From the NCBI GenBank assembly GCA_965219455.1, contig OZ244744.1, positions 2,464,001 to 2,528,000 of the forward strand: a stretch of 64,000 nucleotides of DNA. The letters run 5' to 3'. This DNA comes from Candidatus Latescibacterota bacterium (GTDB taxonomy: Bacteria > Latescibacterota > UBA2968 > GCA-2709665). Below the pieces are notes generated by a model. It did not search any database. It was given only the letters and a program-made list of their open reading frames with translations, and was not told where the DNA came from. The position numbers and the translations under genes are program-made. Below, in pieces: positions 1,493-21,100 of this stretch (its first letter is position 1; the number at the start of each line of letters is the position of its first letter).

Positions 1493-1520
1493 CAGCGATC
1501 AGCAGTCAACAGTCAGATTG

Positions 1521-1870
1521 AAGCAAAAGGCAAAAACCAGATTCCAAATCCACATCTCCCCAAATTCCCTGCCTCCGGCGGAGGAAGGAAGGAAAAGGGA
1601 AAATCAAATTTAAAATCCATTTCTCCCCAGATTCCCTGCCTTCGGCGAGTTCCTTTTGAAGCGACCAAAAGGAACCAAAAGTCGCCGCTAGGCGCGGGGC
1701 CTGCCATATGCACAGCGCGAATTTCCTCACGGGATGCACCCGATCTGCTGCCCTACCAGCCACGGAGGAACATCGATCCAACGTGCTGAACGGAACAGCG
1801 CGCTCTGCTTTGACAGTCCTCCGGGGGATTATTGCTTTCGTAGCACGTTTGGCTTTCTGGTAAGGAGGGT
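1521..1870 (+). repeat. Structured dispersed element, copy 1 (core 1649-1821)
   Basis: Close match to 3111-3312 over ~200 bp; hairpin GTTCCTTTTG-AAGCGAC-CAAAAGGAAC; long-range stem 1696-1719/1799-1821. Confidence 0.85.
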
Positions 1871-1960
1871 GAAAACAGCAAGCAGGGGTTAGCCTCAATT
1901 CGGCCAGAGTCCGTTGCGATTTGGCCTGGCGAAGACCATTACCGATAACATCGCCCTCAC

Positions 1961-1988
1961 GCGGGCAACCACAAGGGTTGCCCCTACA
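1961..1988 (-). repeat. GTAG-type REP palindrome
   Basis: GGGCAACCACAAGGGTTGCCCCTAC; same or related copies near 6064, 9768, 9883, 12447, 19860, 20766, 21806. Confidence 0.85.
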
Positions 1989-2107
1989 AATGTAGCGACG
2001 GCGCCACGAGGGAAAGCCGTTTGCGGATAGAACGTATATCCTGCCCTGCCAGCGAAATCGGATATCGGGGTTCGGTGGGTGCGGATTCTGTGACGCCCCG
2101 AGTGAAC

Positions 2108-3082
2108 TCATCCCTTTACAACTGAACGCATGGCCCGGATGTGCTCCGGCCCCGTCGCACAGCAGCCCCCGATAATCTGCGCGCCCATGGCCTTCCATTC
2201 CCGAGCGAACGCGGCAAGCCGTTCGGGTGTGTTGTCGCCCCGCTGCAGAATTTCGGCCGTTTCATCCGGCGACGTTCCGGCTTCTCCGGATCCCAGAGGC
2301 GCCAGAGGACGGTACCCGATGTTGGGGTATGCGCCCACGCAGCCGTCGAAAGCCTCTTTCAGATACGGTAGTCCGGCCGAGACTTCCGCCGGCGGCGTGC
2401 ACATAATCAGGACGCCGTCGACTTTGTGGCCTGCCAGAGCCGCAGCAAGGTCCTCGAGCCGCTCGCCGTACTGCATTGCTCCGTCTTCCCGAATATGCCG
2501 GACGCCCAGAAACGCCGGCAGGCCGGTCCCGGCGCACGCGTCCGCGGCCGCTACGCAGTCGGCGATGTATCCGACGTATTCCACCCAGATCACATCTACG
2601 CCGACCTCGGCCAGCACCTTCGCATGGTCGCCAATCTCCCTCCGGTACGCTTCCTCACCCATAATGTCAACGTCGGATTGTCTACCCTCGGACTGCCTCT
2701 GTACACACGGAGGCGCGATGCCGCCCGCAACGTAAGCCTCGGGGTTAACGGCGTCGCGCGCCGCGATTGCGTTCTCCGCGGCTGCCCGGGCGTAAGCTTC
2801 CCATCGGCCGCCCAGTCCAATTGGCGCCATTCGCGTGGGGCTCGTCCAGAAGTTGTTGCTGATAATGATGTCGGCGCCCGCTCGCAGGTAGTCCCCGTGG
2901 ACCTCCCGGACCGCCTCCGGCGCTTCCATATTGGCCGTGGCCGACCAGGCCTGTAGCCCACCCTCGGCCGTGGCGCCCTTCAACACGTCGATTCCTCTTC
3001 TCTGCAGTTCAGACCCGGTTCCGCCATCCAGGAGCAGAGAGGCGCCAGATTCGAGTCGATCCAGAATATTCGTTGAAGGCAT
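2108..3082 (-). CDS. Homocysteine S-methyltransferase family protein
   Basis: LLDGGTGSEL, YLRAGADII, GAYPN and IIGGCCATGPEHI (Zn-binding GGCC) motifs. Confidence 0.92.
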   Translation of the reverse strand: MPSTNILDRLESGASLLLDGGTGSELQRRGIDVLKGATAEGGLQAWSATANMEAPEAVREVHGDYLRAGADIIISNNFWTSPTRMAPIGLGGRWEAYARAAAENAIAARDAVNPEAYVAGGIAPPCVQRQSEGRQSDVDIMGEEAYRREIGDHAKVLAEVGVDVIWVEYVGYIADCVAAADACAGTGLPAFLGVRHIREDGAMQYGERLEDLAAALAGHKVDGVLIMCTPPAEVSAGLPYLKEAFDGCVGAYPNIGYRPLAPLGSGEAGTSPDETAEILQRGDNTPERLAAFAREWKAMGAQIIGGCCATGPEHIRAMRSVVKG

Positions 3083-3110
3083 CGGATCCTCCTTAAACAG
3101 ATTCAGCGGT

Positions 3111-3460
3111 CAGCCAAAAGCGAAAACCAAATTCAACACCCACCTCTCCCCAAATTCCCTGCCTCTGGCGGAGGGAGGAAGGAAAAGGGAAAATCAGATT
3201 TAAAATCCACATCTCCCCATATTCCCTGCCTTCGGCGAGTTCCTTTTGACGCGACCAAAAGGAACCAAAAGTCGCCGCTAGGCGCGGGGCCTGCCATATG
3301 CACAGCGCGAATACCCACAAGGGACGCCCATGACCCTCTGCCCTGCCGGCGATAGCGAATTACAATGTTGAGAGATGGACGGAACCGCGCGCTCTGCTCT
3401 GGTAGTCCTCTCGAAAGGCATCGCGTCTGAAACCAGCAGGGTTTCCTGTAAGTGGGGAGC
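3111..3460 (+). repeat. Structured dispersed element, copy 2 (core 3239-3410)
   Basis: Direct repeat of copy 1 at an offset of 1590 bp; same hairpin and long stem, divergent loop. Confidence 0.85.
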
Positions 3461-3606
3461 AATCAGCGTAGAGTCGTCAGCTAAAGGCGAAAAGCAGCTC
3501 ACACGAAGACACAAAGAAAAAGGGCATAAATATATAAATAACAATATAATAGAGATAAATACCGTCAGTCCGGAACAAAACCCGTCATTCTTCTTTCCTT
3601 TCCGAA

Positions 3607-4851
3607 TCATGCCTCCGGCAGGGTGAACCGCACGCGGTCGAACCGCCGGGCCATCGCCATCGCGCGTTTACGGGCGCCCTCCGGATCCCGCTGGCTCATC
3701 ACATCCAGTATGCAGCCGGCGATCTCGGGGGCGTCCGCCTCCGTCATGCCGTATCGGGTCACTTCCTGCACGCCGATGCGAAGACCGTGCGTCCCCAGTT
3801 CTTCCGGAACGCCGGCCGCATTGACGAGAATATGGCACGCCTCCAACTGCCTGGCCAGCGTACTGCTCTCGCCGAACGCTTCAACAATCGGCAGCACGGT
3901 GTGAGATTCGGTGAATCCCCGTTCGGCGCCCACAACCGGCACCCCCTGTGCGTCGAACGCCCGGCCCAGCGCCCGGGCATTGCCGATAATCGCATCCGCA
4001 TGCGCCTCCCCGCACGCCATCCACTCCAGGAACGTGCCCGCAAGCGACGGCAGGCGGCTGAGGTGATGGTTGGCGATCATCAGAGGCACGGTTGCCTTTG
4101 CGATGCGCTCGGCAACGTCTCTGTTGTCGGTCAGAATCATTCCACCCTGCGGGCCTGCAAGCGTCTTATGGGTACTCGTAATGATCACATCGGCGCCTTC
4201 CTTAAGGGGAGACTGAAACCGCCCGCCAGCGATCAATCCCATCACATGGGCCGCATCGTAAACGAGGCAGGAACCGGGACTGTACCGATTCATCGCGTCT
4301 TTCAGTTCCCGCACCGGCTGGGGAAAGAGGAACAGCGCCGATCCGACGATCACCAGTCCGGGACGGTGCTCGCGAATCAGCGAGACCGTCCGATCCAGAT
4401 CTATATTGTACTGTTTCCAATCCCATGGAATCGGAATCGACTTCAGGTCCACTTTCAAGTCCGAGTTCGCCAGCTTGGCGGCATACATGTGCCCGTTACG
4501 CACCTCAAGTGCCGTATCTCCCGGACGACCCAGCCCAAACACGGCGATAATCCCTGCAATATTCCCCGAGAGCGGTCGCAGGTCGACATAGGCCGCCCCG
4601 AAGAGCCCCTTCGCCAGGTCCTGGGCCATCTCCTCAATCTGCATGAGGAACGCATTCCCGGGATACCCCCGGTTGCGCGGATCGATACCGGAATAGGACC
4701 CGTACCTGTGGTCCAGATCATCCACGATCAATCGCTCGACAAGCGGGCTGGGCCTGTTCTCCGACGCGATAAGGTTCAAACTGCTTTCCCGAAACGTCGT
4801 ATGCTTCTCGACCAGGGCATCGATTTCCCGGACTCTTTGGCCAAAATTCAT
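3607..4851 (-). CDS. Divergent serine hydroxymethyltransferase-fold PLP enzyme
   Basis: LNLIASEN, YDAAH, TSTHKTLAGPQGG (PLP lysine), GLRIG; lacks the KYAEG motif. Confidence 0.85.
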   Translation of the reverse strand: MNFGQRVREIDALVEKHTTFRESSLNLIASENRPSPLVERLIVDDLDHRYGSYSGIDPRNRGYPGNAFLMQIEEMAQDLAKGLFGAAYVDLRPLSGNIAGIIAVFGLGRPGDTALEVRNGHMYAAKLANSDLKVDLKSIPIPWDWKQYNIDLDRTVSLIREHRPGLVIVGSALFLFPQPVRELKDAMNRYSPGSCLVYDAAHVMGLIAGGRFQSPLKEGADVIITSTHKTLAGPQGGMILTDNRDVAERIAKATVPLMIANHHLSRLPSLAGTFLEWMACGEAHADAIIGNARALGRAFDAQGVPVVGAERGFTESHTVLPIVEAFGESSTLARQLEACHILVNAAGVPEELGTHGLRIGVQEVTRYGMTEADAPEIAGCILDVMSQRDPEGARKRAMAMARRFDRVRFTLPEA

Positions 4852-5912
4852 AGGGTTTTCCCTTTTCGCGTTAACGCATCGATCAGATCGACTTCGCTAT
4901 AAAGGAGCGCCCGTGCAAAAGCGCCTTCCCCCGCGTAGTCGGGCGCATTCCACGTTTTGGGCGCGCTGTAACAGGCCGTCACAAGCCGCTCGCCCAGCCT
5001 CACGGTCGAGGGGTACCCCAGATCGCTGTCCCCCAGATCATCGCACACGATCAGCCGGACACTCCAGGTGCGCCCCCCGTCTTTGCTCACGCGGGCCTGC
5101 ACGCCGAAAGGTTCGTGCCGCACGCCATGCACCATCAGAATCCAATCGTTGGACAGCAACGTCAGGTCGGCCGGGTGTTCCCGTTCGCCGGTCACCTCCA
5201 ACGGTGCGTCCCACGTGTACCCTCCGTCTGCGGAACGGCACACCGCGATCAAGCCCCCTCGATCAGCGGAACGCATCGCTGCCAGTAGCACACCATCGGA
5301 GGTGAGGAGCAAGGCCGTTTCGTTGTATCCTTCGGCAATCAGCGAAGGGCGATCCCACGTCCGGCCGCTGTCGTCAGAACGCAGAACATACGCGCAATCG
5401 CCCGTCTCGACACCGGAACGGATATTGTGGCCGTAGAGCGGCAGCAGCATCGTCCCTCCGGGAAGGGTGACAATCCGGCCGAACGCGGAGTGCAATTCCA
5501 TCTCGGTGAATCCGAGGGGCCGGTTGTCTTCCCAGCTTCTCCCCCCGTCGCGAGATCGGGTGACGCGCATCTGCACGCGTCGCAACTCCGGCATCCAGCT
5601 TCCGCCTTCGCCATAGGACCCCTGGGCGTGGTAGGCCAGTACGACCGTCCCATCGGGCGCCACGCCCACGGCCGGATTCCGGTCGTCCGCCTGGGTGTCC
5701 ACAATAACGACCGGCGGCTCCCACGTCCGCCCGCCGTCCGGCGAGCGAACCGCCTCCAGGCGGCCGGTAACGCCCACGTGACCCGCCCCGGCGCGCACCA
5801 CGGCCAGGATTTCCTCGCCGTGCACGTTGACGAGAACCGGAAAATAGCCGAAGTCACGGCAGAGATACACCTCGGTAGCTGAAGGAAACCTGCGACAATC
5901 GATCGTGTTCAT
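4848..5912 (-). CDS. BNR/Asp-box sialidase-family protein
   Basis: Repeated SxDGGxTW Asp boxes and DLGYPS motif; stop overlaps the start of the SHMT-like gene. Confidence 0.88.
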   Translation of the reverse strand: MNTIDCRRFPSATEVYLCRDFGYFPVLVNVHGEEILAVVRAGAGHVGVTGRLEAVRSPDGGRTWEPPVVIVDTQADDRNPAVGVAPDGTVVLAYHAQGSYGEGGSWMPELRRVQMRVTRSRDGGRSWEDNRPLGFTEMELHSAFGRIVTLPGGTMLLPLYGHNIRSGVETGDCAYVLRSDDSGRTWDRPSLIAEGYNETALLLTSDGVLLAAMRSADRGGLIAVCRSADGGYTWDAPLEVTGEREHPADLTLLSNDWILMVHGVRHEPFGVQARVSKDGGRTWSVRLIVCDDLGDSDLGYPSTVRLGERLVTACYSAPKTWNAPDYAGEGAFARALLYSEVDLIDALTRKGKTL

Positions 5913-5934
5913 CAAGAATTCCTTTTTGAAAATT

Positions 5935-6091
5935 CAGCTATCAGCTAAAACAGCGATCAGCGATCAGTTTACAGCCGTCAGCTTGAAGCAAAAGGCGAAA
6001 ACCAAATTCAACCTCTCCCCCCGGCCCCCTCTCCTAAAGGAAAGGGGGAGAAACACCGGCAAGGCGGGCAACCACAAGGGTTGCCCCTACA
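5935..6091 (+). repeat. Heptamer array + C-rich hairpin + REP (partial composite repeat)
   Basis: CAGCTATCAGCTA...GCCGTCAGC, ACCTCTCCCCCCGGCCCCCTCTCCTAAAGGAAAGGGGGAG, GGGCAACCACAAGGGTTGCCCCTAC. Confidence 0.8.
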
Positions 6092-6115
6092 AAAGCCAAC
6101 GTCGTCGCGGGAACT

Positions 6116-9100
6116 TCAACAGTGCCAGACGTCCGCTATCCGCCATGAATCTCCAGGCGCGACGTCGTATACGTAGAACGGTTTTCCCGAAAACGCCGCC
6201 GCCTCGCCGGTATCGGCCAGCATAAGCTTTCCCTTCTCCGCCGTTTTCAATCGAGGTCCGGTCTGCCCCCGCGTATGTGAAATGGTCTTGCCATCGAACA
6301 GGTCGCGCGCCACTTCCAGCTTCAGCATCGGCGTACCCGTCAGCAGCGTTGCGCCTTCCACCGCCTCAATCCGTCCCTCGCTCAACAGGAAGTCCATCTT
6401 GTCCAGTGATATCCTGTACCGGCCCTCACCCGCCGCCTCCACGCCCGCAACCTCGTAGGACGAATTACAGATGTAGCCGGGATGCGAGAGTACGACCGTC
6501 CGCCCGATCAGCGAACCATCCACCGGAAGCGGAACCGACGACGTCACGACGATCCGGCGGTCCTCGACGTCCACCGCGTCGACCCGTCCTCCCCATGCTC
6601 CCGGCCCTTCCATCTCGACCTCTCCGAATCGAAAGGCCTTTCCATTCACCACCTGCGCCCGGCGGATCGTATCGCCCTCGCGCTCCACAAACGCCCAGTC
6701 CCCGTCGAATCGAAACGGCAGGCTGTCCGCCTCGCCCTCCAGGAACCCATCCGTTCCGTCCACGATATAGTGGACACGCTTGCCGATCTCCACCCTCAAG
6801 CCCGCGGCCCGACCGCCTATACAAAGCGTCGCCACCTTGTCTATGCAAGTCGCCCCGGAAAACGGCTCCAGAACGCCCATGAACCGGTTTTCCTTCCCAT
6901 CCTGTCCTGACCGACGTACGATCACGGACCGGTCCCAGGGACTGTGGTCCTGCAGTCCCATCCCCTCGGCGAGCCCTGTAATCACCGTTGAACCCGCCTC
7001 GCCTGGCATGTGCAGCCGGATGCCTGCGCCCTCTTCTTCCGTCCGCCAGGTTGCCGTCAACCCGCCGTCCGTCCGGGCCCTCGCCACGTCCTTCACGAAC
7101 CCGTACCCGGGCGCCTCTCCGAACGGGACGTCGGGTCCGGCCAGCGTCCCCTCGTCCTGCGCCTCGAGGACCGCGTCCTCAGGCAGATCAATCTCGAACC
7201 GTTCCGCGTTCTCCCCGGCCCAACTGTGGAAACTGTAGTCGTGTTCCGCACCGCCCGCAATCCGGAACCAATCGACCACGTAGGCCCGCGTCTCATCCAC
7301 GGGAACCAGCGCCACCGCCCTGCGGTACAGGTTCGCGAGGTCCGGATAGGCCCGCTCGCCGGACGCATCGGCCATGTGCACCCACGGCCCGGGCACGAAA
7401 AGATTCAGACTGCCCGTTGCGAACACCTGGTTCTGGCCGTCGATGGCCGCTGTACAGTGACTGGCCGTATGCGTCTCCCATCCGGCTTTCTTCGGCGCCA
7501 CCCAGCTTGGCGGATATCCCAGGTCCGCGGACAGATCGTATCCGTAAGCGATGACATTCACCGCCAGCTTATCCATATGCCCGTGCCCGTGGTTCCCTTT
7601 CCCATAGTTCAACACGACATGCCGGCGGCTTGCCTGTTGGTCTCCCGCCCGCAGAATGCAGAACCCCGAATCGTGCAACACGTCGCTCTCGGGTGAAATG
7701 CCTCCGGCCTCCGCCGTCTCATTCCACGGTTCGCAATGGAACAACAGAAAGAGATCGCCGCCCTTGCGAGCGGCGTCCGGATCGCCGACGGCGGCCGCCA
7801 ACAAACGCCGCACATACAGATCCCGCGCCTCGGGCAGCCGCAGGAGACCGATCTCGTCTTCGAGGGAATATGGCGTGCGCAACACGGAGTTCCGGCCCCC
7901 GCCCGTATCCCCGATCATCGGCACGCGCCCGTCGCAGTCCACAGCGCGCGCGAATTCCATCATCTCGCGCAGTCGGAACCTTGGATCGTGATACAGGTCC
8001 ACGGGTGACGGGAAATGCGCTCCGTCATGAAACCCCAGGGTCCATTCGGCGGCATCCAGCGCCTCCCGAATGTTGCCAGTACTGTAAGAAATCGAGTCAT
8101 ACCAGAACTTCCCGTCCCGGAAGAAACTATTGGACATCACATTGTAAAGCCCCGTCGGCGCTTCCAGCGCCTGCCTGATCATCGCCCCGTTCTGCAGACA
8201 CGCCCCCACCTTGAGTAACGAGTAAAGCGATGACGTCAGGAAGTCGCCCCCGGCAATGGGCAACGTCCTGTCCAGAAACTCGTAGGCGTACGCGAACAGG
8301 TTCCGGTGGATGTTAAATATGATATCCTCCGATGTCACCCGCCCGTCCCCATCGAAATCCTCGCCCCCCCGTGCCCGGAAGAACCCGGCCACGTCCTCCT
8401 CTTCCAGCATTGCCTCGAAGATCAAATCGTACGTCACCGCCACGTGATTCAGAAAGAACTGCTCCCGCCCCGAAGCCTCCCCGACGTATCCGCGGATTGG
8501 ATCCTTGCTCCTGTCGTAGGCCTCGTATCCCTCCTTGATGCCCTGCAACCGCCCATACACCTCCGCCAGCCGGTTCAACAGGACCCCCGCCTTATGCGCG
8601 TACTTCCGCTCTCCCGTAAAGGCGTAAGCCAGCGCCAGGGCCTGGGACGCGGGCCGCCCCTGGTGTCCTGTTCCCGTCTGCGGGGCGTAGGGATTGGAAA
8701 ACAACCGGTAGAGGAGATAGCACCGGTACGCCCCCGTGAAATAATACGTGACACCCGCGTTCATGAACCCCTCCGGCGCCACCCACCCCGGTCCGTCGTC
8801 CACCACGCGGACCCGGGCGCCCGTGCCCGGGTTTTCGACTTCGATGCCCTGGTACCACCACTCTCCGCCGATATTGCACCGCCACTGATACGGATGTAAC
8901 AGGTCACTCTCGAGCGTGGACCGGTTGCCCCCGTGAATCGGACACCCGTCGTACTGGGCCACGGTCAACGCCATGGGATTCTGCGTTGGCACCATCGCAT
9001 ACAGCGTCTCATCGGAAAACCCCGTCCAGAAGTCGGCGTCCTTTACAATCTCGTCCACCATGTCCCGCGCCCACCCCAGGCGCTCCGCGTTCCGCCTTGC

Positions 9101-9439: not shown

Positions 9440-9686
9440 ACTCTCACTTCAACTTTCTTTTTCTCTTCGTCCTTTTTCTTATTCGCAAGAAAAAGGACCA
9501 AAAAGAACCGCGCCGTTCGGCACCTGTCTGCGTACGGACACGCACAGGCAGGCGGGGCCGGTTTTTCCGCGAATCGCCTGACCGGTGAATACAGGCGCCT
9601 GTGCCCTACGTGCGAAAAAGGATACACCAAGCCGCGGTGCCGGACGGATAAACACGGAAAAACCCCCCACACCACAACCGTACGCA
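9440..9686 (+). repeat. Structured dispersed element, copy 3 (core 9469-9668) with inserted palindrome 9523-9552
   Basis: Hairpin GTCCTTTTTCTT-ATTCGC-AAGAAAAAGGAC then CAAAAAG; stem GGTTTTTCCG/CGGAAAAACC; anchors CGCGAAT, TGCCCTAC, ACGGA. Confidence 0.75.
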
Positions 9687-10106
9687 TTTGGGGCAAAATG
9701 CGCGATTGGGCGAGAAGACCCCTCTCTCCCACCGGCCGGGATAAAGGTAATCATGCGGGGCCGCAAGGCGGGCGGTTCGCGAACCGCCCCTACAAAAACC
9801 CGAATCCGTGATATTGATATCGCCGGGCCGTATGGATGACCGGCGTCCGTCGACCGCTGTTCGCCACCGGACGCACGGTATTTGCAGGGGCGAACCATGG
9901 GTCGCCCAAAAATTGGCGCTGACAGCGGCAAATCCCATCGCCAGGCCAGATCGCTATCTCCAGGACAGAACCCAAGAAAAGGCTTCAAATTCGAGACAAT
10001 TCCGGTTATTTTCTACGACCGTCGGGCCGGCGTCCCGAGGATCTCCAAAACCACCCACTCGAATTCACCCTTTTCCTACTGAACTTATCAGGAGCCTTGG
10101 CAAACC

Positions 10107-12556: not shown

Positions 12557-13723
12557 TCAATCAACCGTAGTTTTCTCCAGTTTCTCCAGCGCTTCGCGCG
12601 CGCCCTTGTGCTTTTTGTCCAATTTCAGAACGGTTCCGAATGCGCTGCGCGCGAGGTCCCTTTCCCCCCGGCGTGCATGGATACGGCCGAGTCTGTAATG
12701 GCCCCATACCCTTGGCCAGCGCCATTTCTCCGGCAACTGGCGGAGGAGGGCCGTCAGCGATTCCAGGCCCAGATCCATCTTCATCCCGGTGAGGGCGGAG
12801 AACCTGCCGATTCCATAAAGGGCATCGAGCCGGTTCCGTTGGGCATCCAGCGCGTTCTCGAAGGATCGAACGGTCGGACTTGAATCGGCAGCCAGCGCTG
12901 CAATAGAATCCCTCGCGACTTCCAGGCTCCTCCGGGCGGCCTCGAACGCCTTTTCATTGTCCTTCTCCAGGCGATACAGGTTGCTCAATCGGTACAGGAT
13001 CGGGCCATGGTCGGAGTAGGACTGCAGATGCGTCTCGTAGACCCGGATCGCGTCAAGTCGCCGTTCGGCGCGTACGTAGAGCGCCGCCAGGGAAATAACC
13101 GGGCGGACGTCGCCATTCCCGGACTCGATGGCCGCGAGATAGGCGCTTTCCCTTTTGGCCTGCGCCTTTTCCTTTACATGGATAAGGGCCCACGCCAGGT
13201 GGCCTTCCGTCAAATCCCTGGACTTGATCTCGCCGGCCTGTTCAAGCGCTTTCTCCCTGCTGCCTCCCACAATCCCCGGCGCGCGAAGGTGATACTCCAC
13301 CAGCGCGGTCCGCGCGGCCAGGTGATCAGGATCCAACCGGACCGCTTTCTCAAACGCCTTGAGCGCGCCCCGGGCGTGTCCGGGTTTCCTGAAAATATTA
13401 GCTTCCTGCGCCTTCGCGCCATACATCTGTCCCAGCCGGTATTGGTAATCCGCCGATGCGGAATCGGCCTCAACGGCCTTCTCCAACCAATCGAATGCCG
13501 CCCCGGCGTCACCCTCCCAGGCATTGACGCGGCCCAGCAGATAACAAATTTGCCCCCGGTCGGCCCCGGGCTGCCCGAGCCGTGTCCTCAGACCGTCATC
13601 GGCGTCGTCATATCGACCGTCAATGAATGCCGCCAGCGCCTGATTGATCCCTGGCGTCGCCGCCGCGGCGGTCGTTGTTGCGAACAGCATGATGATGCCA
13701 ACCACGAACCCCTGTCTGATCAT
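12557..13723 (-). CDS. Secreted tetratricopeptide-repeat protein
   Basis: Signal-peptide-like N-terminus and several TPR-like helices (YLLGRV, YRLGQMY, YRLGRIH). Confidence 0.8.
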   Translation of the reverse strand: MIRQGFVVGIIMLFATTTAAAATPGINQALAAFIDGRYDDADDGLRTRLGQPGADRGQICYLLGRVNAWEGDAGAAFDWLEKAVEADSASADYQYRLGQMYGAKAQEANIFRKPGHARGALKAFEKAVRLDPDHLAARTALVEYHLRAPGIVGGSREKALEQAGEIKSRDLTEGHLAWALIHVKEKAQAKRESAYLAAIESGNGDVRPVISLAALYVRAERRLDAIRVYETHLQSYSDHGPILYRLSNLYRLEKDNEKAFEAARRSLEVARDSIAALAADSSPTVRSFENALDAQRNRLDALYGIGRFSALTGMKMDLGLESLTALLRQLPEKWRWPRVWGHYRLGRIHARRGERDLARSAFGTVLKLDKKHKGAREALEKLEKTTVD

Positions 13724-13781
13724 TCCTGCTTCCCTTATTTACATGGATAAAGGAACATTTCCTTACGCTCTGTTCCGTGTG

Positions 13782-15479
13782 TTACGCCTGTTGCCACAAC
13801 CCATGAAAATCGGCATATAACGCGTGTCGGTGCAACAGTTCTTCATGGCTGCCGACGTCGATACCGGCGCCGTCCATCACCAGCACCCTCCGCGCGCGCC
13901 GGGTGGCCGCCATGCGGTGTGCGACCACGATCAGCGTGCAGCCGAGCGCCATGAATGCCCGCTCGGCGCGTTCCTCGGCGACCGGATCCAGGTGACACGT
14001 GGCCTCGTCCAGTACGACAATGGGCGCCGCCGCCAGGTGCGCCCGTGCCAGGGTCACCAGTTGCCGCTCCCCTTCAGACAGGCCGGACTTTGCAAGGTTG
14101 ACCTCCGCGTCCAGGCCGCCGAGCCTGTGAATCACCCGTTCGAGCCCGACTGCCTCCGCGGACACCGCAATCTCTTCCTCGGCCGCGGAGGGCCGCAGGT
14201 AGGAAAGGTTCTCGCGTAGCGAACCCGCGAAGACATACGATTCCTGGGGGACCATCGTTACGAGCCGGGGGCGGTCCGGTCGCAGAAAGAAGGGCCTCCC
14301 GTCGACCGTGATCGCGCCGCTGTCCGGGCACAGTACCCCCGCCAGCAAGGCGCCCAGCGTAGACTTTCCGATCCCGCTCGGCCCCGCGATGGCCAGGTGA
14401 TCGCCGTTTGGGACGTCCAGGGAGAATCCGTGGACGATCGGCTCACCCGCGCCGTATGCAAACGTCAGATCCCGCACCGCCAATAACGGTTGTCCCGCCG
14501 GAGACGGCGCCCGCGCCTCGAGGCTTATCACCCGGCCCCCACCATCCCCTATTGACGCCAGCAGGCGCGCGTGGTGTACGCGCAATGTGACCACCCTGTA
14601 CAGCCCGTACGTCACGAACGCCGTCGCCGCCGTCAGGCCCGCAAGCAGGTAGGTGAATGACCCCACCACCTCACCCACGCTCAGAAGATCGCTGCGAACC
14701 AGGTACGGTACAAAGCCGAGAGCCGTCAGAGCGGGGAACGTGGTGGCGGTTGCGTTCACGACCCCGAATCCGACCGCCTGATGGTCGCCCTGGCGGAGCG
14801 ACGCCCGGATGGACCGCTGAATCCGATCTAAAACGCGTCCCATGGCGAAGCCCTTGGCGCCTGCCGCCACCAGATCCCGCACCGATTGGAGCGCGCGGGT
14901 CATCTCGCCATGGGACGCCTCCTCTGCGAGCATGGACGCGGTCTCGTCGCGGACCTTGAGGCGGACGACGACGACCTGCAGGAAAACGGCGAGAACGAGC
15001 CAGGGGAGTACGAGGACCAGCAGCGTCCAGGACAACGTCGCCAGTCCGACCGCGGAGCCGATGGCGAACAGGCCGGACGGGCCAAGGCGAAAGAGGTGCG
15101 CCAGCACATCGACGAGCGTGGGCACGTGGTGGGTGAGTTCGGCGCCGGAACGCAGGACCCGGTCGGTACGTACCGCATCCCCCAATGCGTGGCGAACGAC
15201 GTCACGGGTCAGGTCGGCCTGCACCCTCGCCGTCAGCATTGCTGTCCCTTGCGACAGGCGCAGCAGCGACCAGACGCCTACGGCGCCCGCGACCAGAAGC
15301 GCGCCGATCCATGCCAGGGCCGCCGTGAGGTCGCCTTCGCGCGCCGCGTCTATGGCGCTGGCGATGAGACGCCCGGAGAGCGCGGGCGCGAGCGTCACAC
15401 CGAGGCTCCACCCGGCGATGCGTAGCAGGCACCCGCGGTGCCGCCTCACGTAAGTAAAGAGGGACTGGATGGGCATCAT
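13782..15479 (-). CDS. ABC exporter (permease + ATPase), RamB/AmfA-like
   Basis: GPSGIGKST, LSEGERQLVTLARA, LDEATCHLDPVAEERAERAF; ATGA overlap with upstream gene. Confidence 0.9.
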   Translation of the reverse strand: MMPIQSLFTYVRRHRGCLLRIAGWSLGVTLAPALSGRLIASAIDAAREGDLTAALAWIGALLVAGAVGVWSLLRLSQGTAMLTARVQADLTRDVVRHALGDAVRTDRVLRSGAELTHHVPTLVDVLAHLFRLGPSGLFAIGSAVGLATLSWTLLVLVLPWLVLAVFLQVVVVRLKVRDETASMLAEEASHGEMTRALQSVRDLVAAGAKGFAMGRVLDRIQRSIRASLRQGDHQAVGFGVVNATATTFPALTALGFVPYLVRSDLLSVGEVVGSFTYLLAGLTAATAFVTYGLYRVVTLRVHHARLLASIGDGGGRVISLEARAPSPAGQPLLAVRDLTFAYGAGEPIVHGFSLDVPNGDHLAIAGPSGIGKSTLGALLAGVLCPDSGAITVDGRPFFLRPDRPRLVTMVPQESYVFAGSLRENLSYLRPSAAEEEIAVSAEAVGLERVIHRLGGLDAEVNLAKSGLSEGERQLVTLARAHLAAAPIVVLDEATCHLDPVAEERAERAFMALGCTLIVVAHRMAATRRARRVLVMDGAGIDVGSHEELLHRHALYADFHGLWQQA

Positions 15480-17266
15480 GAGGCTGACTCCTGAGCGGGG
15501 TCGCCCAGGAACGCGGCGCGGTAATCGGGGTCTCGCCATAGCTCGACATGCGGCGCCAGGCGCCGGACCTCACCCTTGAAAAGCCATGCCACGAGATCGG
15601 CTGCCGCGGCGGTACTCGCCCGGTGGGCGATAATCACTGTCGTCCGGGACCTCCCGAGTTCCCGCAGCGCCGCCATTACGCGCGCCTCGGTCGCCACGTC
15701 GAGGCTGCTGAGCGCATCGTCCAGAATCAGCACAGGCGTAGCCATGAGCGCTGCCCGCGCAAGTCCGAGCCGCTGGCGTTCGCCGCCGGACATCGGCGCT
15801 TCGTCGAGTGGCGTGGCGTATCCGAGCGGGAGGCGGCGGATGAACACGTCCGCCTCGACCCGCTCCGCGGCCGCCTGCACGGCTTCGTCGGTGGCGTCAG
15901 CGCCCAGCGCGATGACGTCACGAACGGTGTCGCCGATAAGCGCAGGCCGCTCGAATGCGTAGCCGACCCGGCGCGAGAGCACGCCGCGGGGCAGGTCCGT
16001 AACGGCCGTGCCGTCGATGCGCACGACACCCCGGTCCGGATCCTGGAGCCGGCCGATCAGCCCGGCGAGCGTGGTTTTACCGACGCCGGACTTGCCGACC
16101 AGTGCAACCGTCTTTCCAGCGGGAATGCGAAGATCCACGCGCCGGAGGATTTCCCTTTTGGAATCGCCCACGGATACGCCGTCGAACCGGACCTCGCCGG
16201 GCCCCTCCGCCTGGTCGGATGCGTCCGATCCGGGTTCCGGCACGGCGGCCGGAGATCGAAGAACGGCGATTACCCGGGCTGCGTGGGCGCGAAAGTAGGC
16301 GATCTGGAACCAGCCGTTGTCGAATACCCCGGCGACGCTTGCGTAAGTCATCTGCGCGTAGCGGATGGCAGCCATCAGCGCGCCAACAGTCAGACCGCCC
16401 GCGGCCAGCAGACACACGCCGGTGACAGCGGTCACTGTCAATACAACGTGATTGGCGCTGGTCACCGTTACGGCGCCGCGGCCGGCGTTTTCCATGATCT
16501 GGCGCGTTTTGTCGACCAGTTTCGGCAGCGGTTCCGTTATGCGCTCGACTTCCCGTTCGAGGGTGCCGGACGCGCGTATGGTGCGCCTTCCGGCAAGGGC
16601 GCCCGTGTACGCGTTCACCATGCGGCTGCTCAATTCGTCGTATCCGGTCTGTCCGGTGGTAAGCGCGCCCATCAGTCGACGCATGAGAACGGTGACGGAC
16701 CCGACACCCGCAAGCGCCACCACCACAAACACCCAGTGCACGTAATACAACGCGACGAGGCTGCCCGCCGCCGTCAAGATTCCCGTGCCGATCCTCAGCA
16801 GGGTCTCCGGGTAACGCGGCAGGTGCGTTGCCTCGGAGCGAATCCGGTTCTGCAGGTCTCCGTCGTCGAATGGCCGCCGGCCGGGCAGGCCGAGGTCCAG
16901 CGCATGATCGACGATTCCGCGCATCAGCCGGCCGTCGATGGCGGCGCGGAACCGGGCCCTTACGGGCTCCGCGGCCATGTCGATCAACACCGCCAGGACC
17001 ATCGCCACGGCCAGTCCCCGGAACCCCCAGCCAATTCGCCCGTCGACAGCCTCGTCAATGGCAAGGCCGGCCAGCGCCGGCGCGGCCAGACCCGCACCGA
17101 TCGACAGCATGCTGAGCAGGGCGTCCAGGGCGAACCAGTGCCATGCCCCGCGGGCGTAGGGCCGCAGGAACGCCATCACTTCCCGGATTCCGGGTAACGG
17201 CGGATCGGCGGTATTGCGATCTTCCGGATGTGACTCCCGGCCCGTAGCAGGATTCTCCTCAGCCAC
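15476..17266 (-). CDS. ABC exporter (permease + ATPase), RamA/AmfB-like
   Basis: GKSGVGKTT, VGYAFERPALIG, MSGGERQRLGLARA, LDDALSSLD, AHRASTAAAADLVAWL; GTG start chosen for RBS spacing (ORF runs to 17287). Confidence 0.9.
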   Translation of the reverse strand: MAEENPATGRESHPEDRNTADPPLPGIREVMAFLRPYARGAWHWFALDALLSMLSIGAGLAAPALAGLAIDEAVDGRIGWGFRGLAVAMVLAVLIDMAAEPVRARFRAAIDGRLMRGIVDHALDLGLPGRRPFDDGDLQNRIRSEATHLPRYPETLLRIGTGILTAAGSLVALYYVHWVFVVVALAGVGSVTVLMRRLMGALTTGQTGYDELSSRMVNAYTGALAGRRTIRASGTLEREVERITEPLPKLVDKTRQIMENAGRGAVTVTSANHVVLTVTAVTGVCLLAAGGLTVGALMAAIRYAQMTYASVAGVFDNGWFQIAYFRAHAARVIAVLRSPAAVPEPGSDASDQAEGPGEVRFDGVSVGDSKREILRRVDLRIPAGKTVALVGKSGVGKTTLAGLIGRLQDPDRGVVRIDGTAVTDLPRGVLSRRVGYAFERPALIGDTVRDVIALGADATDEAVQAAAERVEADVFIRRLPLGYATPLDEAPMSGGERQRLGLARAALMATPVLILDDALSSLDVATEARVMAALRELGRSRTTVIIAHRASTAAAADLVAWLFKGEVRRLAPHVELWRDPDYRAAFLGDPAQESAS

Positions 17267-17338
17267 AACAGTACCACCTTCTCTCAAGAAGCAAAATCAC
17301 CGGCATATTGCGGGACAGCGCCGCTCGGCGGGGGGCCG

Positions 17339-17581
17339 GACCTACCCCCTAACCCCCTTCCTGAAGGAAGGGGGAACGGTGATGGGTCGATGTACCGGGC
17401 TTGCGAACGCGCCGGGATGGCGTTTTCCTACGAATCAGAGCGTATACAAAACACCGGTAAGGCAACGCTCAGCTTACCTCCCCCTTTCCTTTAGGAGAGG
17501 GGGCCGGGGGGAGAGGTATTTCGTTTTTAGCTTACGGCTGAAAGCTGATAGCTCTGTCCGAGGAGGCCGGGGGGAGAGGTC
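17339..17581 (-). repeat. Composite intergenic repeat (copy B)
   Basis: CCTACCCCCTAACCCCCTTCCTGAAGGAAGGGGGAAC ... CTCCCCCTTTCCTTTAGGAGAGGGGGCCGGGGGGAGAGGT plus heptamers; reverse complement of 424-623. Confidence 0.85.
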
Positions 17582-17589
17582 GCTGTCCC

Positions 17590-18753
17590 TCAATACAGAT
17601 GAATAGACCCATCGGGTCCGACGTAGCGGCGCGGGGGCAGGGCCCGAAACGGCCGGGACCTCACCATCTCCATATCCAGTTCAACCCCCAGCCCGGGCCG
17701 CCGGCCCAGTTCTTCGACGTCCACGTAACCGCCCGAAATCGGCACCCGCAGCGCCTGCACGTCGTCGAACCACGGCCGCAGCCTGCAGTGCTCCAGGATC
17801 TCGAAATTCTGCATCGCGGCCGCCGCGTGAGCGGCAGCAGCCAGCGCCACGGGCCCGTACGGGTTGTGCGGCGCGATCCCGATCCCGTACACCTCCGCAA
17901 AATGAGCGATTTTCATCAGTTCGCTGATCCCGCCCGCGTGGCAGATATCCACCTGGCACACGTCCACCGCCTGTTTTTCGAACCACTCCCTGCAATCCCA
18001 TCGTGTGATCCACCGCTCACCCGCGGCAACCCGAACCCCCGGAAAGTCCCCCTTCAATCTCACGTACGGCGCCACCATGCTCTGCTCGATCGGCTCTTCC
18101 ACGAAGAACAGGTCCAGCGGCTGCAGTTCCCGCACGAGCCGATGCGCCGCCGGAGGCGAGAACACGCCGCCGCAGTCGATCATCAGCGCGACGTCCGGCC
18201 CCAGCGCCTCGCGCAACCGGGTCATCTCTTCAACCGCGACGTCCACCTGGGCGTCCACGTCGAACGGCCTGACCGCCGGGCCGTGTCCGTGCTTGAACGC
18301 ATCGAACCCCTCCTCCAGGGCCTGCGATGCGTGCGCCGCCAGCGAATCCAGCCCCAGGTCCGCACGTGCGTAACACCGCACCTTGCTGCGAACCTTACCG
18401 CCCAGCAGCTTGAACACGGGCTGTCCCGATGCCTTTCCCACGATGTCCCACAGCGCCATGTCGATCCCGCTGACCGCGCTGGTATGTACCACGCCCCGCT
18501 TCCACCAGAAGTCCCGGTACCCCAGTTGCCAGACCTGCTCCACGTCTCTTGGATCCATTCCCAGCAGTCTGGGTTTCAGCGCCGTTTCCACCTGCGCCGC
18601 AACCGCCATTTCGTGGTGCTCCGTGGTGGCCTCGCCGATCCCCGTGACGCCGGCGTCCGTTTCCACCTCCACGAATATCCAGTTCCGCCTGGGTGTCTCC
18701 CCGTCCGCCGCGGGGACGTTCATCACGTACGCCCTGATTTCCGTGATCTTCAT
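17590..18753 (-). CDS. Mandelate racemase family enzyme, galactonate dehydratase-like
   Basis: SGIDMALWDIVGK, FFVEEP, AAGER, HAGGISE, APHNPYGP. Confidence 0.9.
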   Translation of the reverse strand: MKITEIRAYVMNVPAADGETPRRNWIFVEVETDAGVTGIGEATTEHHEMAVAAQVETALKPRLLGMDPRDVEQVWQLGYRDFWWKRGVVHTSAVSGIDMALWDIVGKASGQPVFKLLGGKVRSKVRCYARADLGLDSLAAHASQALEEGFDAFKHGHGPAVRPFDVDAQVDVAVEEMTRLREALGPDVALMIDCGGVFSPPAAHRLVRELQPLDLFFVEEPIEQSMVAPYVRLKGDFPGVRVAAGERWITRWDCREWFEKQAVDVCQVDICHAGGISELMKIAHFAEVYGIGIAPHNPYGPVALAAAAHAAAAMQNFEILEHCRLRPWFDDVQALRVPISGGYVDVEELGRRPGLGVELDMEMVRSRPFRALPPRRYVGPDGSIHLY

Positions 18754-18858
18754 CCCTCAGTCCTCTTTCTCCATGAACGCCCCGTCCCGTTGGATACGGT
18801 CGGATTCGCCCGCCTGGTCCGACCCCTTTTCGCTCGCGCTCGGGAAGGCACCAGGAAT

Positions 18859-19764
18859 TTAAAGACAGCTTCTGAAGAATTCTCTCAGACCTTCCATCTC
18901 CTCGTCGTTTAACGAATAGTAGGGTTTCCGGCGCCATCGCTTCGCTACGCCGAAGATTTCCATCGCCCCGTGGAACCCCGCGTTCCACCCGCCGGTCAGC
19001 TTGCCGATATAGTCGAAAAAGGGCATGTCGTATTCGCGGATGATTTCCCGCGCCGCCTGGACGTCCGCTTTCCGGATCGCGCTCCAGTATCGACGGGCGA
19101 TCTCCGGTTTGAAGGTAATATACGTCGACATATACCCATCACATCCGTACGGCCACATATTGATGTGGTTCACCTTCTGCCCCCCGGCAAACACGGCCAC
19201 CCGTTCGTGCGCGACCAGGCACAGCCGGCGCGCGAAATCCCCGCACATATCGTCCTTGATGGCGACGACATTCTCGAAACTGTCGAGTGTTCTCTCCACC
19301 ACGTCCAATCCGAATTGCGGTCCGCGGGCGGAGAAAGCGCCCGTTACGATCATCACCGGCATCGTCTCCGACACCTCGCCGTAGTGCGCCACGAGCGTCT
19401 CCTCCGTACTCGAAGCCCCCCAGGCCGGCGGAAGCACCATCAGCACGTCGGCTCCCAGTCCTTTTGCGAACGATGCAAACGCAACCGACCGCCGCGTGTC
19501 GTAATACCGATCGGCCGCAACCACCATCCCCCGCCCGGCCGTATGCTCGCACGCGACCCGGGTCACCTCCGCGATTTCCGCCTCGGACATGCAGATATAA
19601 TGGCTGTCGCCCGCCGTCAGCAGCACGGTGCGGCTACCCCCCTCCAGCACGAAATCGATCTGGTGCCGCAACCCGTCGTAATCCACGCTCCCGTCCTCGT
19701 TGAACGGCGTGGCGATGGACGAAATGATCCCTGTCAGATGCGCCCTAACTTCGTCGCGATCCAT
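18859..19764 (-). CDS. DHDPS/N-acetylneuraminate lyase-family aldolase
   Basis: IATPFNEDGSVDYDGL N-terminus, GADVLMVLPP, VVAIKDD Schiff-base lysine. Confidence 0.87.
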   Translation of the reverse strand: MDRDEVRAHLTGIISSIATPFNEDGSVDYDGLRHQIDFVLEGGSRTVLLTAGDSHYICMSEAEIAEVTRVACEHTAGRGMVVAADRYYDTRRSVAFASFAKGLGADVLMVLPPAWGASSTEETLVAHYGEVSETMPVMIVTGAFSARGPQFGLDVVERTLDSFENVVAIKDDMCGDFARRLCLVAHERVAVFAGGQKVNHINMWPYGCDGYMSTYITFKPEIARRYWSAIRKADVQAAREIIREYDMPFFDYIGKLTGGWNAGFHGAMEIFGVAKRWRRKPYYSLNDEEMEGLREFFRSCL

Positions 19765-19782
19765 AAAAAGCTCCCAAAAAAG

Positions 19783-19889
19783 CAGCGGTCAGCTATCAGC
19801 CGTTAGCTGTCAGCTTACAAAAAAAACCAGACAATCGATGTCCGGCCCCCATCGGTATTTGTAGGGGCAACCCTTGTGGTTGCCCGCGT
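19783..19889. repeat. Heptamer array and REP
   Basis: CAGCGGTCAGCTATCAGCCGTTAGCTGTCAGC and TGTAGGGGCAACCCTTGTGGTTGCCCGCG. Confidence 0.8.
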
Positions 19890-19973
19890 CGCGGAAATTC
19901 AAACTCACGCAAAAACACGAAGACGCTATTGGCAAACCACACCAGGACCCTTCACCACACGGTTTTTCGGCAT

Positions 19974-20381
19974 CTACGGGATGACTTCAAACCCCATCTG
20001 CCGGAAATGATGATCCAGTGTCAACACCCGTTGAATTCGCAATTCCCGCATGAGAACAAAGCTGCAGCAGTCGGTATAGGAGAATTCCTTGTCCCGATAT
20101 CCGAAGAAGAGTGACCGCGCCCGTTCTCTTCGCGTTTCGTCGATGGACTCGATCCTCAGACGGGTTGAGCCGTTGATTTGCACCCACCAGGCCTCGGCGG
20201 CATCGAGACCAAGGCGGAACCGGATGGTCGTGAGCGTCTCGTCGATGACGTAGTCCGTCGTCGTGAGCAGGCCTCCGGACGACAGCCAGCGGTCCCTCGC
20301 TTCCCGCACAGCGGAGCCCTTCGAATCGCGGCTATCCGCCGCCGCAACCCATCCCGCGGTATCCACGAACATTTCTTTCAC
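19974..20381 (-). CDS. vapC: PIN-domain toxin
   Basis: FVDTAGW, TTDYVIDET, FSYTDCCSF, LTLDHHF. Confidence 0.93.
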   Translation of the reverse strand: MKEMFVDTAGWVAAADSRDSKGSAVREARDRWLSSGGLLTTTDYVIDETLTTIRFRLGLDAAEAWWVQINGSTRLRIESIDETRRERARSLFFGYRDKEFSYTDCCSFVLMRELRIQRVLTLDHHFRQMGFEVIP

Positions 20382-20623
20382 CGGTACAACACCTCGTCAT
20401 GCCGAGCGGCTACGTCTCCCGATTCCGATGCGCCTACGGGCGGGGCCTGGTAGAGTGAATCGGATTCGAGCGGCGTGTTACCCATCGTCGGACTGCCAAC
20501 GGGGACGATGTCGAAAGCCGGACGGCTGCGGTACAGCACCGTAAATCGCTCCCCGTGCCGCACCTTTGCGACGACCTCCTTCAGACGCGCTCGAAGCTGT
20601 TTGGCATTGATAATCTCTGGCAT
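20378..20623 (-). CDS. Phd/YefM-family antitoxin
   Basis: INAKQLRARLKEVVAKVRHGERFTVLYRSRP; overlaps the toxin start. Confidence 0.88.
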   Translation of the reverse strand: MPEIINAKQLRARLKEVVAKVRHGERFTVLYRSRPAFDIVPVGSPTMGNTPLESDSLYQAPPVGASESGDVAARHDEVLYR

Positions 20624-20639
20624 CACGGATCCTTTCTAT

Positions 20640-20659
20640 AGTTTAACTTAAGATAAACT
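20640..20659. promoter_or_regulatory. Candidate antitoxin operator
   Basis: Near-perfect palindrome AGTTTAACTTAAGATAAACT immediately upstream of the antitoxin RBS. Confidence 0.55.
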
Positions 20660-20879
20660 TATTCGATGGAGAGCGCAAGACGAGAGACGTCCGGTGGCCA
20701 CCCCGCGTCCACCGGACATCGATATGGCCTGGTGAAATCAATCGGCGAAATCCGCGCCACGGAGAGGGCAACCACAAGGGTTGCCCCTACAAATTCGACG
20801 ACGACGAGGGGCAAAGCATACAGCGACTGGCGGTACGACCGCAATTCCATGCTGCGGACCGTCCGGGTCTACCTCAGGC

Positions 20880-21100
20880 CCGCACGGTCCGGGTCGAGGG
20901 GACTCTTCCGCGTTGATCCGTTCAGCTATGTCACCTGGTGTATGTTCAGGCGTTCGCAGGGCAACGTCTCACGACTCTGCCACTAAGGCGATTCGCGGAA
21001 GAGCAGCCCCGCGGCGTCTGAGCGGCGCCGTTCTTTTTGGCCCTTTTTCTTTGGCGAGAAAGAAAAAGGGCGTAAAAAAAAAGAAATATGAGGTGAGGGG
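20880..21100 (-). repeat. Structured dispersed element, copy 4 (core 20898-21071)
   Basis: Minus strand: GCCCTTTTTCTTT-CTCGCC-AAAGAAAAAGGGC then CAAAAAG; stem CTCTTCCGCG/CGCGGAAGAG; anchors CGCGAAT, TGCCCTGC, ACGGA. Confidence 0.75.

Follow-up and report, generated by a model that had tools for sequence, protein, structure and literature searches.

Structured intergenic repeats of bacteria include the ERIC (or IRU), REP/BIME, BOX and Correia elements. ERIC/IRU sequences, found in Enterobacteriaceae and Vibrio, are single imperfect palindromes of 127 bp that lie only in spacers, including those inside operons, in either orientation, and are presumably transcribed by read-through; to our knowledge no enzyme that mobilises them has been described. 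The REP/BIME unit is a GTAG-headed palindrome of 20–40 nt connected with the RAYT (Y1) transposases. Here we describe a structured non-coding element with four copies in a 64,000-nt stretch (the window) of the genome of a Candidatus Latescibacterota bacterium (contig OZ244744.1, positions 2,464,001 to 2,528,000). The element is non-coding and has not been described before; genomes of one order of sponge-associated Latescibacterota carry tens of copies of it. The explanation that we find most plausible, although we hold it only tentatively, is that of a mosaic, non-coding, non-autonomous family of structured intergenic repeats resembling ERIC and BIME.

The element shares with ERIC/IRU a high copy number, the lack of coding capacity, a folded structure, an intergenic position in either orientation and also inside operons, conservation across a family or order, and no recent burst, a likeness of behaviour with no expectation of homology. 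It differs in being modular and about 300 nt long, in enclosing an anchored loop of ~78 nt, and in comprising two subfamilies that pair convergently. The behaviours of this class that are seen here are an exclusively intergenic position, either orientation, occurrence inside transcription units and conservation across related genera, with transcription suggested only by contigs from RNA libraries. As in REP/BIME there is a mosaic of short modules, inverted pairs are common, the sites lie between convergent or co-directional genes, and REP hairpins accompany 31 of the 81 near-full copies in the genome; the core, however, is a multi-hairpin unit of ~300 nt and not a REP, the REPs being only its neighbours, and 8 of the 14 element-bearing genomes of the genus yielded no canonical Y1/RAYT gene. 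Miniature inverted-repeat transposable elements (MITEs) such as Correia are likewise non-autonomous, multicopy and intergenic, vary in presence between relatives and receive insertions of other elements, but here neither terminal inverted repeats nor a target duplication were seen, paralogues are at most 88% identical and the conserved part is internal.

A repeat family within one order

The genome to which the window belongs (G000) is a single contig of 5,844,228 bases with 58.3% G+C. A loose pattern of the loop anchors matched 42 places, one of them a false positive by alignment, and a profile made from the remaining 41 gave 105 matches at E ≤ 0.001, namely 81 near-full copies (at least 170 of the 267 profile positions) and 24 fragments; the element makes up ~0.4% of the genome. 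The 81 copies form two subfamilies, A (n = 31) and B (n = 50). Subfamily A, which includes copies 1 and 2 of the window, has a first hairpin (P1) with the arms GTTCCTTTTG/CAAAAGGAAC. Upstream it carries an A-rich module of ~60 nt (U) with a small palindrome at its end; it is bordered on both sides by runs of CAGCNNT heptamers and has a tail of ~60 nt. Subfamily B, which includes copies 3 and 4, has a P1 of the CCTTTTTCTT/AAGAAAAAGG type and extends ~100 nt further in the 3' direction, ending in the small hairpin GCGGTnnnACCGC. The U module is also found solo or duplicated, as at window positions 1518–1584 and 3103–3174. The complete order of modules would be heptamer run, U with its palindrome, the AT-rich hairpin P1, hairpin P2, the stem P3 closing a loop of ~78 nt, the tail and often a REP hairpin.

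Subfamily A was recovered by DNA search in all 14 other genomes of the genus. A covariance model whose structure consisted of P2 and P3 (142 positions) was derived from 41 B cores; it gave 88 matches in G000 and 10–109 per genome in the genus, and matched in four of the five genera of the family. When 151 genomes sampled evenly over the phylum were searched, it matched all 18 from the same family, 10 of the 30 from the sister family in the same order, and none of the 102 from the 12 other families. Full-model matches in distant genera are nearly constant in length (138–153 nt) and share P2, P3, a single-stranded AAU, the motif ..CCYUCAGNGG, UGSCCUG and UUGCUGGACGGAAU. One genome of another genus (G031) has all 8 of its model matches on the same strand within 225 kb (4.81–5.04 Mb), unlike the scattered pattern elsewhere.

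At gathering thresholds nothing in the whole window matched Rfam 15, and on the element there was no match even at E up to 10 (window 1400–3700), so that the family, which a first-pass annotation of the window had not recognised, is absent from that collection. Likeness to tRNA or tmRNA was ruled out, as ARAGORN gave no matches in window 1–22000. A full-text literature search, with supplementary files outside its range, returned nothing on such an element.

The first-pass annotation had reported copies at 1649–1821 (+), 3239–3410 (+), 9469–9668 (+) and 20898–21071 (−), and these positions and strands are correct, as are the lengths that it gave for the two loop segments (26, 26, 27 and 27 nt; 33, 32, 34 and 34 nt), the P1 hairpins and the arms of the long-range stem in their three forms. 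The pattern CGCGAAT-N(20–34)-TGCCCTRC-N(25–42)-ACGGA is matched 4 times in the window, where 0.01 would be expected; none of 100 shuffles gives as many. Compared with dinucleotide shuffles, copy 1 has folding z scores of −3.74 and −4.60 on its two strands and copy 4 of −4.71 and −4.33, with 0 of 200 shuffles as good in every case. The annotation had drawn the element too short: with its upstream and downstream modules it measures ~300 nt. Its parts in the window, with the neighbouring REP-like hairpins, are as follows.

1493–1516 (+): CAGCNNT-like heptamer run at the 5' edge of copy 1, from the sequence and the consensus of the 31 A copies
1518–1584 (+): extra solo U module ending in the 13-nt palindrome CCTCCGGCGGAGG (1572–1584)
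1585–1648 (+): U module of copy 1, with the covarying pair T1642:A1648 in CTTCGGCGAG
1649–1675 (+): copy 1 (subfamily A), hairpin P1, GTTCCTTTTG / CAAAAGGAAC
1676–1719 (+): copy 1, A-rich linker, GTCGCCGCTAGGCGCGGGG segment and 5' arm of P3, GCACAGCGCG (1710–1719)
1720–1794 (+): copy 1, loop, made up of AAT, the 26-nt segment 1, TGCCCT (1749–1754), the 33-nt segment 2 and ACGGA (1790–1794)
1795–1861 (+): copy 1, 3' arm of P3, CGCGCTCTGC (1799–1808), and conserved 3' tail to TTTGGCTTTCTGG
1963–1987 (+): REP-like hairpin GGGCAACCACAAGGGTTGCCCCTAC downstream of copy 1
3103–3238 (+): copy 2, two upstream U modules, the solo one ending in CCTCTGGCGGAGG (3162–3174) and the second joined to the core
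3239–3450 (+): copy 2 (subfamily A), with P1 at 3239–3265 and the tail at the 3' end
3310–3383 (+): copy 2, loop, with TGCCCT at 3339–3344 and ACGGA at 3379–3383; 3' arm of P3 at 3388–3397
3514–3526 (+): AAAGAAAAAGGGC, what is left of an inverted B copy's P1 hairpin, from alignment with the related locus L091, where a longer part survives
9469–9508 (+): copy 3 (subfamily B), P1 GTCCTTTTTCTT / AAGAAAAAGGAC (9469–9498) and linker CAAAAAGAAC
9509–9571 (+): copy 3, P2 region with the optional inserted hairpin CCTGTCTGCGT..ACGCACAGGCAGG, and 5' arm of P3, GGGGCCGGTTTTTCCGCG (9554–9571)
9572–9648 (+): copy 3, loop, made up of AAT, 27 nt, TGCCCT (9602–9607), 34 nt and ACGGA (9644–9648)
9649–9720 (+): copy 3, 3' arm of P3, CACGGAAAAACCCC (9653–9666), and B-type 3' extension
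9768–9793 (+): REP-like hairpin GCGGGCGGTTCGCGAACCGCCCCTAC downstream of copy 3
20829–21071 (−): copy 4 (subfamily B), with P1 at 21071–21040, P2 at 21029–21011 and the 5' arm of P3 at 21010–20994
20993–20917 (−): copy 4, loop, with TGCCCT at 20963–20958 and ACGGA at 20921–20917; 3' arm of P3 at 20912–20898
3' extension of copy 4 (−): ends in hairpin GCGGTCGTACCGC
20766–20790 (−): REP-like hairpin GTAGGGGCAACCCTTGTGGTTGCCC downstream of copy 4

The solo U module near copy 1 corresponds to a partial nhmmer match at genome positions 2465524–2465580. Upstream of copy 1, the HSP20 gene is directly followed by a strong intrinsic terminator, a hairpin with a T-run, at 1458–1487 (+). Tandem runs of the CAGCNNT heptamer lie at 1493–1516, 3105–3118 and 3459–3480 and are found on both sides of A copies in all genomes; one such run is also present at the corresponding place in a relative that has no copy 1. 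The optional hairpin in the P2 region of copy 3 (9522–9552) recurs in some B copies, at loci L040, L048 and L054.

Covarying helices around a variable loop

The closing stem P3 is well supported. Among the 41 B copies its 11 pairs are 98.2% paired, and four of them have changed on both sides (32 cells), a level of double change that 0 of 500 shuffles reach. The 33 copies from four other genera are 98.5% paired with three doubly changed pairs, in an alignment fitted to the model and therefore favouring the structure. In subfamily A, one P3 pair (alignment positions 110/200) is A:T in 63 copies and G:C in 21. The covariation of the stem arms noticed in the four window copies thus holds in larger sets, and the proposal that the scaffold is selected at the level of RNA or single-stranded DNA agrees with the maintenance of its helices by compensatory change. 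One detail of the earlier drawing needs qualification, namely that GCGGGG opens the long-range stem: in subfamily A it can pair equally well with the upstream CCCTGCC.

The strongest covariation among 92 ungapped A copies (13 genomes) lies within the U module. The bases that flank CGGCG in CCTNCGGCGN'G (window 1640–1649 and 3230–3239) are Watson–Crick partners in 92 of 92 copies, with no wobble (AT 42, CG 32, TA 15, GC 3). Together with this flanking pair, CGGCG makes a 7-bp palindrome, NCG-G-CGN', which reaches up to 13 nt in solo U modules, for example CCTCCGGCGGAGG at 1572–1584. The leader upstream of P1 pairs with the linker that follows P1, in sequences that differ between the subfamilies. 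Mixed A and B alignments made for RNAalifold and MAFFT alignments of full A cores were poor and were replaced by an anchor-based alignment.

The compensatory changes have few wobble intermediates, with a single G:U in 738 cells of the B set, and both strands of copies 1 and 4 fold equally well. Exceptions to Watson–Crick pairing in G000, read on the given strand, are A:C rather than G:T by 11 to 1 in subfamily A and by about 14 to 8 in B, and an A:C on the given strand is a G:U on the other. Copies from other genera do have G:U pairs in the distal stem when read on the given strand, and a wobble count by strand based on alifold is even (174 to 152). Assignment of a strand by wobble pairs was therefore rejected, the evidence being inconsistent between G000 and the other genera. 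Relative to the direction of replication deduced from GC skew, the copies are oriented 51 to 29. The cumulative skew of G000 has its minimum at ~3.52 Mb and the sign changes again near 5.5 Mb, which makes the replichores very unequal; the copies are concentrated between 0.8 and 3.4 Mb.

Analysis of the loop made use of the 103 A copies, out of 111 from 13 genomes, that could be parsed. Segment 1 is 26 nt long in 98 of them; for segment 2, 59 copies have 34 nt and 40 have 33 nt. This bears out the near-fixed loop length first noted in the window. The anchors read CGCGAAT in 82 copies, TGCCCT in 68 (TGGCCT in 22) and GACGGA in 75 (AACGGA in 21). Over 2142 pairs the mean pairwise difference is 38% in the loop and 9.3% in the scaffold, a fourfold contrast, and the variable stretches are distinct in 28–31 of 31 A copies and in 47 of 48 B copies. 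Not all of the two segments is variable, since conservation across the order extends to about the first 13 nt of segment 1 (..CCYTCAGNGG) and to the TGCTGG that precedes ACGGA; the truly variable stretches are about 13–15 nt and 23–27 nt long.

Hairpins within the variable segments, suspected by eye, were rejected because the averaged pair probability is 0.3 or higher only at the nine pairs of P3, on either strand. Neither of the two segments nor the loop as a whole differs in folding energy from shuffles, and the energy of a duplex between the segments is the same within a copy as between copies. A small open reading frame through the loop was likewise rejected, as every frame is interrupted in at least one copy and the length of segment 2 is either 33 or 34 nt. 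The loop is open, variable and of fixed size, and about one third of it is conserved motif; the earlier description of it as variable stands with that restriction. A role of the ACGGA/GGA motifs as a sponge for CsrA was dismissed, the genome having no CsrA gene.

Genomic context and turnover

Genes were called with our own crude caller based on codon usage (4164 genes, 84% coding). All 81 copies are intergenic: 30 lie antisense and 21 sense between co-directional genes, 19 between divergent and 11 between convergent genes. An element-rich stretch at 2.388–2.410 Mb contains core genes (by Pfam) for ribosomal proteins S6, S18, L9 and L25, an H+-pyrophosphatase, peptidyl-tRNA hydrolase and a GHMP kinase. 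There the S6-S18-L9 operon (G000 2395520–2398600; L302 8520–11600) is split between rpsR and rplI by an A/B composite of ~1.1 kb, and a second A/B composite lies upstream of rpsF. Adjacent copies on opposite strands pair A with B in 12 of 12 cases, never A with A or B with B, and are convergent in 11 and divergent in one. REP-like GTAG heads occur within 400 nt downstream of 31 of the 81 copies and upstream of 8, where ~1.4 would be expected from the 255 heads in the genome; REP-like hairpins are spread genome-wide and have at least three stem types (GGGCAACC..GGTTGCCC, GGGCGGTTCGCGAACCGCCC and GGGCGACCGGCCGGTCGCCC).

No promoter of sigma-70 type was predicted around copies 1 and 2, whether within the element or ahead of it, and no intrinsic terminator follows the element. 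Upstream regions in G000 are enriched for TTGACAA, TATATTT and AGGAG, with sigma-70-type TTGACA and TATATT signals; promoters of the Bacteroidetes type TAnnTTTG are not enriched (84 sense, 74 antisense) and were set aside. Four consecutive genes in the 2.39–2.40-Mb cluster gave rise to the idea that U is an outward promoter of the divergent gene, but as a general role this was rejected, with 22 of 44 U cores facing a divergent gene and the motif GAATTTGG not enriched upstream of genes. Metatranscriptome contigs from four runs in three studies match the conserved parts of the scaffold, the HSP20 gene and the REP at a likeness of at least 90%. The summed contig depth over the scaffold exceeds that of neighbouring genes in two runs (for example 244.7 against 35.8 in X2), in contigs that pool many paralogues and relatives, may include DNA carry-over and whose gaps and depth are uninformative about the boundaries of expression. 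These contigs are weak evidence that the element is present in RNA.

Turnover is visible at the closest relative locus (L091), in which the four-fold sites of three window genes are 78%, 89% and 84% identical. Copy 1 is missing there; instead, the far side of the shared REP holds a B copy that is oriented the opposite way. Copy 2 has an orthologue of 93% identity, its 3' part swapped for the inverted 5' part of a B copy of which the window retains a 13-nt remnant. The same orthologue carries a 164-nt insertion in P2, between GTCGCCG and CTAGGCG, with terminal inverted repeats GTGTTCTGTCCCGGAAATA / TATTTCCGGGACGGGACAC; this is a different small non-autonomous element nested in the copy. Copies 3 and 4 did not align in G011, G009 or G012, and in comparison with G013 their aligned parts are 81% and 88% identical, the remainder 90%.

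Competing explanations and significance

The tentative reading as a structured intergenic repeat family is preferred because the copies are intergenic only, in any orientation and even inside a ribosomal-protein operon; because the modules occur solo, doubled, truncated and recombined; because A and B form convergent composites with a REP between them and copies are gained and lost between sister species; and because neither promoter, coding capacity nor target was found. The element would have spread as DNA into intergenic spacers, at least partly as composites of A followed by inverted B, and would now be inherited mostly vertically, with frequent loss, truncation and rearrangement. Read-through transcription is probable because the element sits between and inside transcription units, and the hairpins would form either in RNA or in single-stranded DNA. 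The scaffold and the anchors (CGAAU, CCYUCAGNGG, UGSCCU and UGCUGGACGGAAU) would most simply act as a docking platform for one conserved protein of the host or of the element itself, in which case the variable stretches would be spacers rather than guides, and neighbouring genes may be affected by a copy.

Several observations weigh against this reading. No terminal inverted repeats, target-site duplication or transposase were found: the first two are not evident in flanked alignments of 31 A and 50 B copies, nor in one comparison of a filled site with a different one, which is not an exact empty site. Canonical Y1/RAYT transposases were not found in 8 of the 14 genomes of the genus, all of which bear the element, with weak partial Y1_Tnp matches in 6 of the 14; RAYT as the mobiliser was rejected, since its distribution does not track that of the element. 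The best match to copy 1 within the genome is 88% identical, and the closest A pairs within a genome have 5–8 differences over 60 loop positions, so the paralogues appear to be old, with no sign of a recent burst. The first-pass suggestion of a non-autonomous mobile structured element accordingly fits the context better than a guide does but finds no direct evidence of mobility in terminal repeats, target duplications or near-identical copies. The RNA contigs, for their part, carry no information on strand, ends or transcript independence.

Conservation between species is a further counter-argument. Six syntenic pairs of copies between G000 and G011 have 0, 0, 0, 0, 0 and 3 differences at the 60 variable loop positions, and one copy is identical in three species with flanks of 88–95% identity. 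Seven syntenic pairs have elements 97.6% identical, compared with 88.8% at third codon positions and 92.5% in other alignable intergenic DNA, although such pairs are few, partly selected and were found as nearest neighbours, by which diverged orthologues are missed; one syntenic block is 98.8% identical throughout and may reflect recent exchange. Loops frozen in this way at some loci suggest that some copies have a sequence-specific function. The scaffold, too, is almost invariant in more than 100 copies from 13 genomes and keeps its motifs across two families, which is unusual for selfish DNA. With the strictly Watson–Crick palindrome and the anchored loop of fixed size with copy-specific stretches, this near-invariance is untypical of the class of structured repeats; the three features point to a specific protein partner and keep alive a very large family of small RNAs and, at lower odds, a guide library.

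A multigene family of stand-alone small RNAs is an unlikely explanation, though the strongest of the alternatives. Here U would be the promoter region and the REP or 3' hairpin would stabilise the 3' end, while the scaffold would bind a common protein and the copy-specific stretches would seed-pair with different RNA targets. Such RNAs would account for a conserved scaffold around a variable, unstructured loop of fixed length, for the persistence of the family across an order, and for orthologous loops that are identical between species whose four-fold sites are 78–89% identical. The REP hairpins between convergent A and B copies could be taken for a shared two-way terminator, and the depth of RNA-library contigs over the scaffold above that of neighbouring genes points the same way. 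Against this, there is neither a sigma-70-like promoter, in a genome that uses the type, nor an intrinsic terminator after the element, and no CsrA gene. In sister species other copies have diverged or been lost, the conservation of copies 3 and 4 against G013 does not exceed that of their flanks, and the exclusive pairing of A with B, the fragments and the solo modules resemble products of DNA rearrangement.

It is rather improbable that the element works as a site in DNA, its hairpins and palindrome forming in single-stranded or cruciform DNA as the substrate of a hairpin-recognising enzyme or the site of a chromosome-organising protein. The near absence of G:U intermediates in both the palindrome and the B set would be explained by such a site, as would the similar folding of both strands, the weak bias of orientation with respect to replication and the position of rearrangement junctions at shared element sequence, but G:U pairs do occur in the distal stem of other genera. 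Within the genus, the element is not accompanied by a canonical Y1/HUH transposase. Integron attC sites are single imperfect hairpins with R''/R' core sites (RYYYAAC / GTTRRRY) in same-orientation arrays beside intI; the P1 arms GTTCCTTTTG/CAAAAGGAAC do not fit those core sites, and the element is dispersed on both strands and not arrayed (intI was not searched for). Two weak Y1 matches were recorded in G000. A partial Y1-like domain at 1912863–1913093 (−) lies inside an open frame of ~1200–1440 aa and is not a standard IS200/RAYT gene; similar partial domains are present in G011, G009, G016 and others and recur in several genomes of the phylum.

The first-pass annotation had drawn an analogy with programmable guides. 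The bridge RNA of IS110 is encoded next to a DEDD recombinase gene, where the IS110/IS1111 element has its non-coding end, and its loops are complementary to the donor ends and the target. Bridge RNAs and the seekRNAs of IS1111 share with the element a structured scaffold, a similar size and variable stretches in loops; here there is no adjoining recombinase, the loops are copy-specific and unrelated to the flanks, and a single large loop takes the place of two internal ones. G000 has no match to PF01548 (DEDD_Tnp_IS110) or to PF07282 of TnpB/Cas12f-like proteins, for both of which control genomes do match (IscB was not searched for). The variable part is internal, unlike the guide of the omega RNA of TnpB/IscB, which is 3'-terminal and derives from the flank. 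The copies are dispersed over 0.01–5.48 Mb on both strands and do not form a tandem, head-to-tail series of repeat-spacer units as in TIGR arrays (Tas proteins were not searched for). The window contains no partner protein, as had been said at the outset, and no neighbouring protein family recurs in the annotated regions.

Searches with the loops were no more favourable. Their best matches in the element-masked genome have a mean of 29.9 bits, against 29.2–29.5 for shuffled loops, and a maximum of 36.2 against 34.2–40.1, in a search confined to the host genome and blind to guides shorter than about 12 nt. The longest match of a loop in its own 1.4-kb flanks averages 8.05 on the same strand and 7.91 on the reverse complement, and 8.03 and 8.06 in the flanks of other copies; the loops of A/B partner copies share nothing. 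Invariant scaffold, open loop, two fixed-length variable stretches between invariant anchors, a loop distinct in nearly every copy and yet identical across species at some loci despite diverged flanks are what a split guide for an RNA-guided recombinase, nuclease or modifier would look like, but with neither an IS110 nor a TnpB/Cas12f-like domain in G000, no recurrent neighbour in the annotated regions and no matches above controls, a guide RNA or DNA in each copy is very improbable, and we give equally little credence to the ~80 copies per genome being a dispersed library of split-guide RNAs for one order-restricted effector of Latescibacterota.

Reverse transcriptases are a separate feature of this genome. 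There are 16 matches, about a dozen of them near-equal copies of RVT_1 (E about 1e-36) in frames of 458–466 aa, which are putative group II intron copies; examples lie at 1947481–1948146 (−), 4793776–4794441 (+) and 571544–572209 (−). Three RVT_1 matches have an element copy no more than about 1.1 kb away, a number that does not clearly exceed chance for intergenic features.

The element adds to an uncultured, sponge-associated lineage a large, order-wide family of structured non-coding sequence that stands outside Rfam, with roughly 10–110 copies per genome. A specific protein partner is suggested by the invariant scaffold, the strictly covarying pairs and the open, anchored loop with its fixed size. 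Expression of the copies as discrete RNAs would make this one of the largest families of paralogous RNAs known from bacteria; should they be selfish DNA instead, they would show how such repeats invade even ribosomal-protein operons and persist for long. Either way, gene callers and comparative analyses of these genomes should take the element into account.

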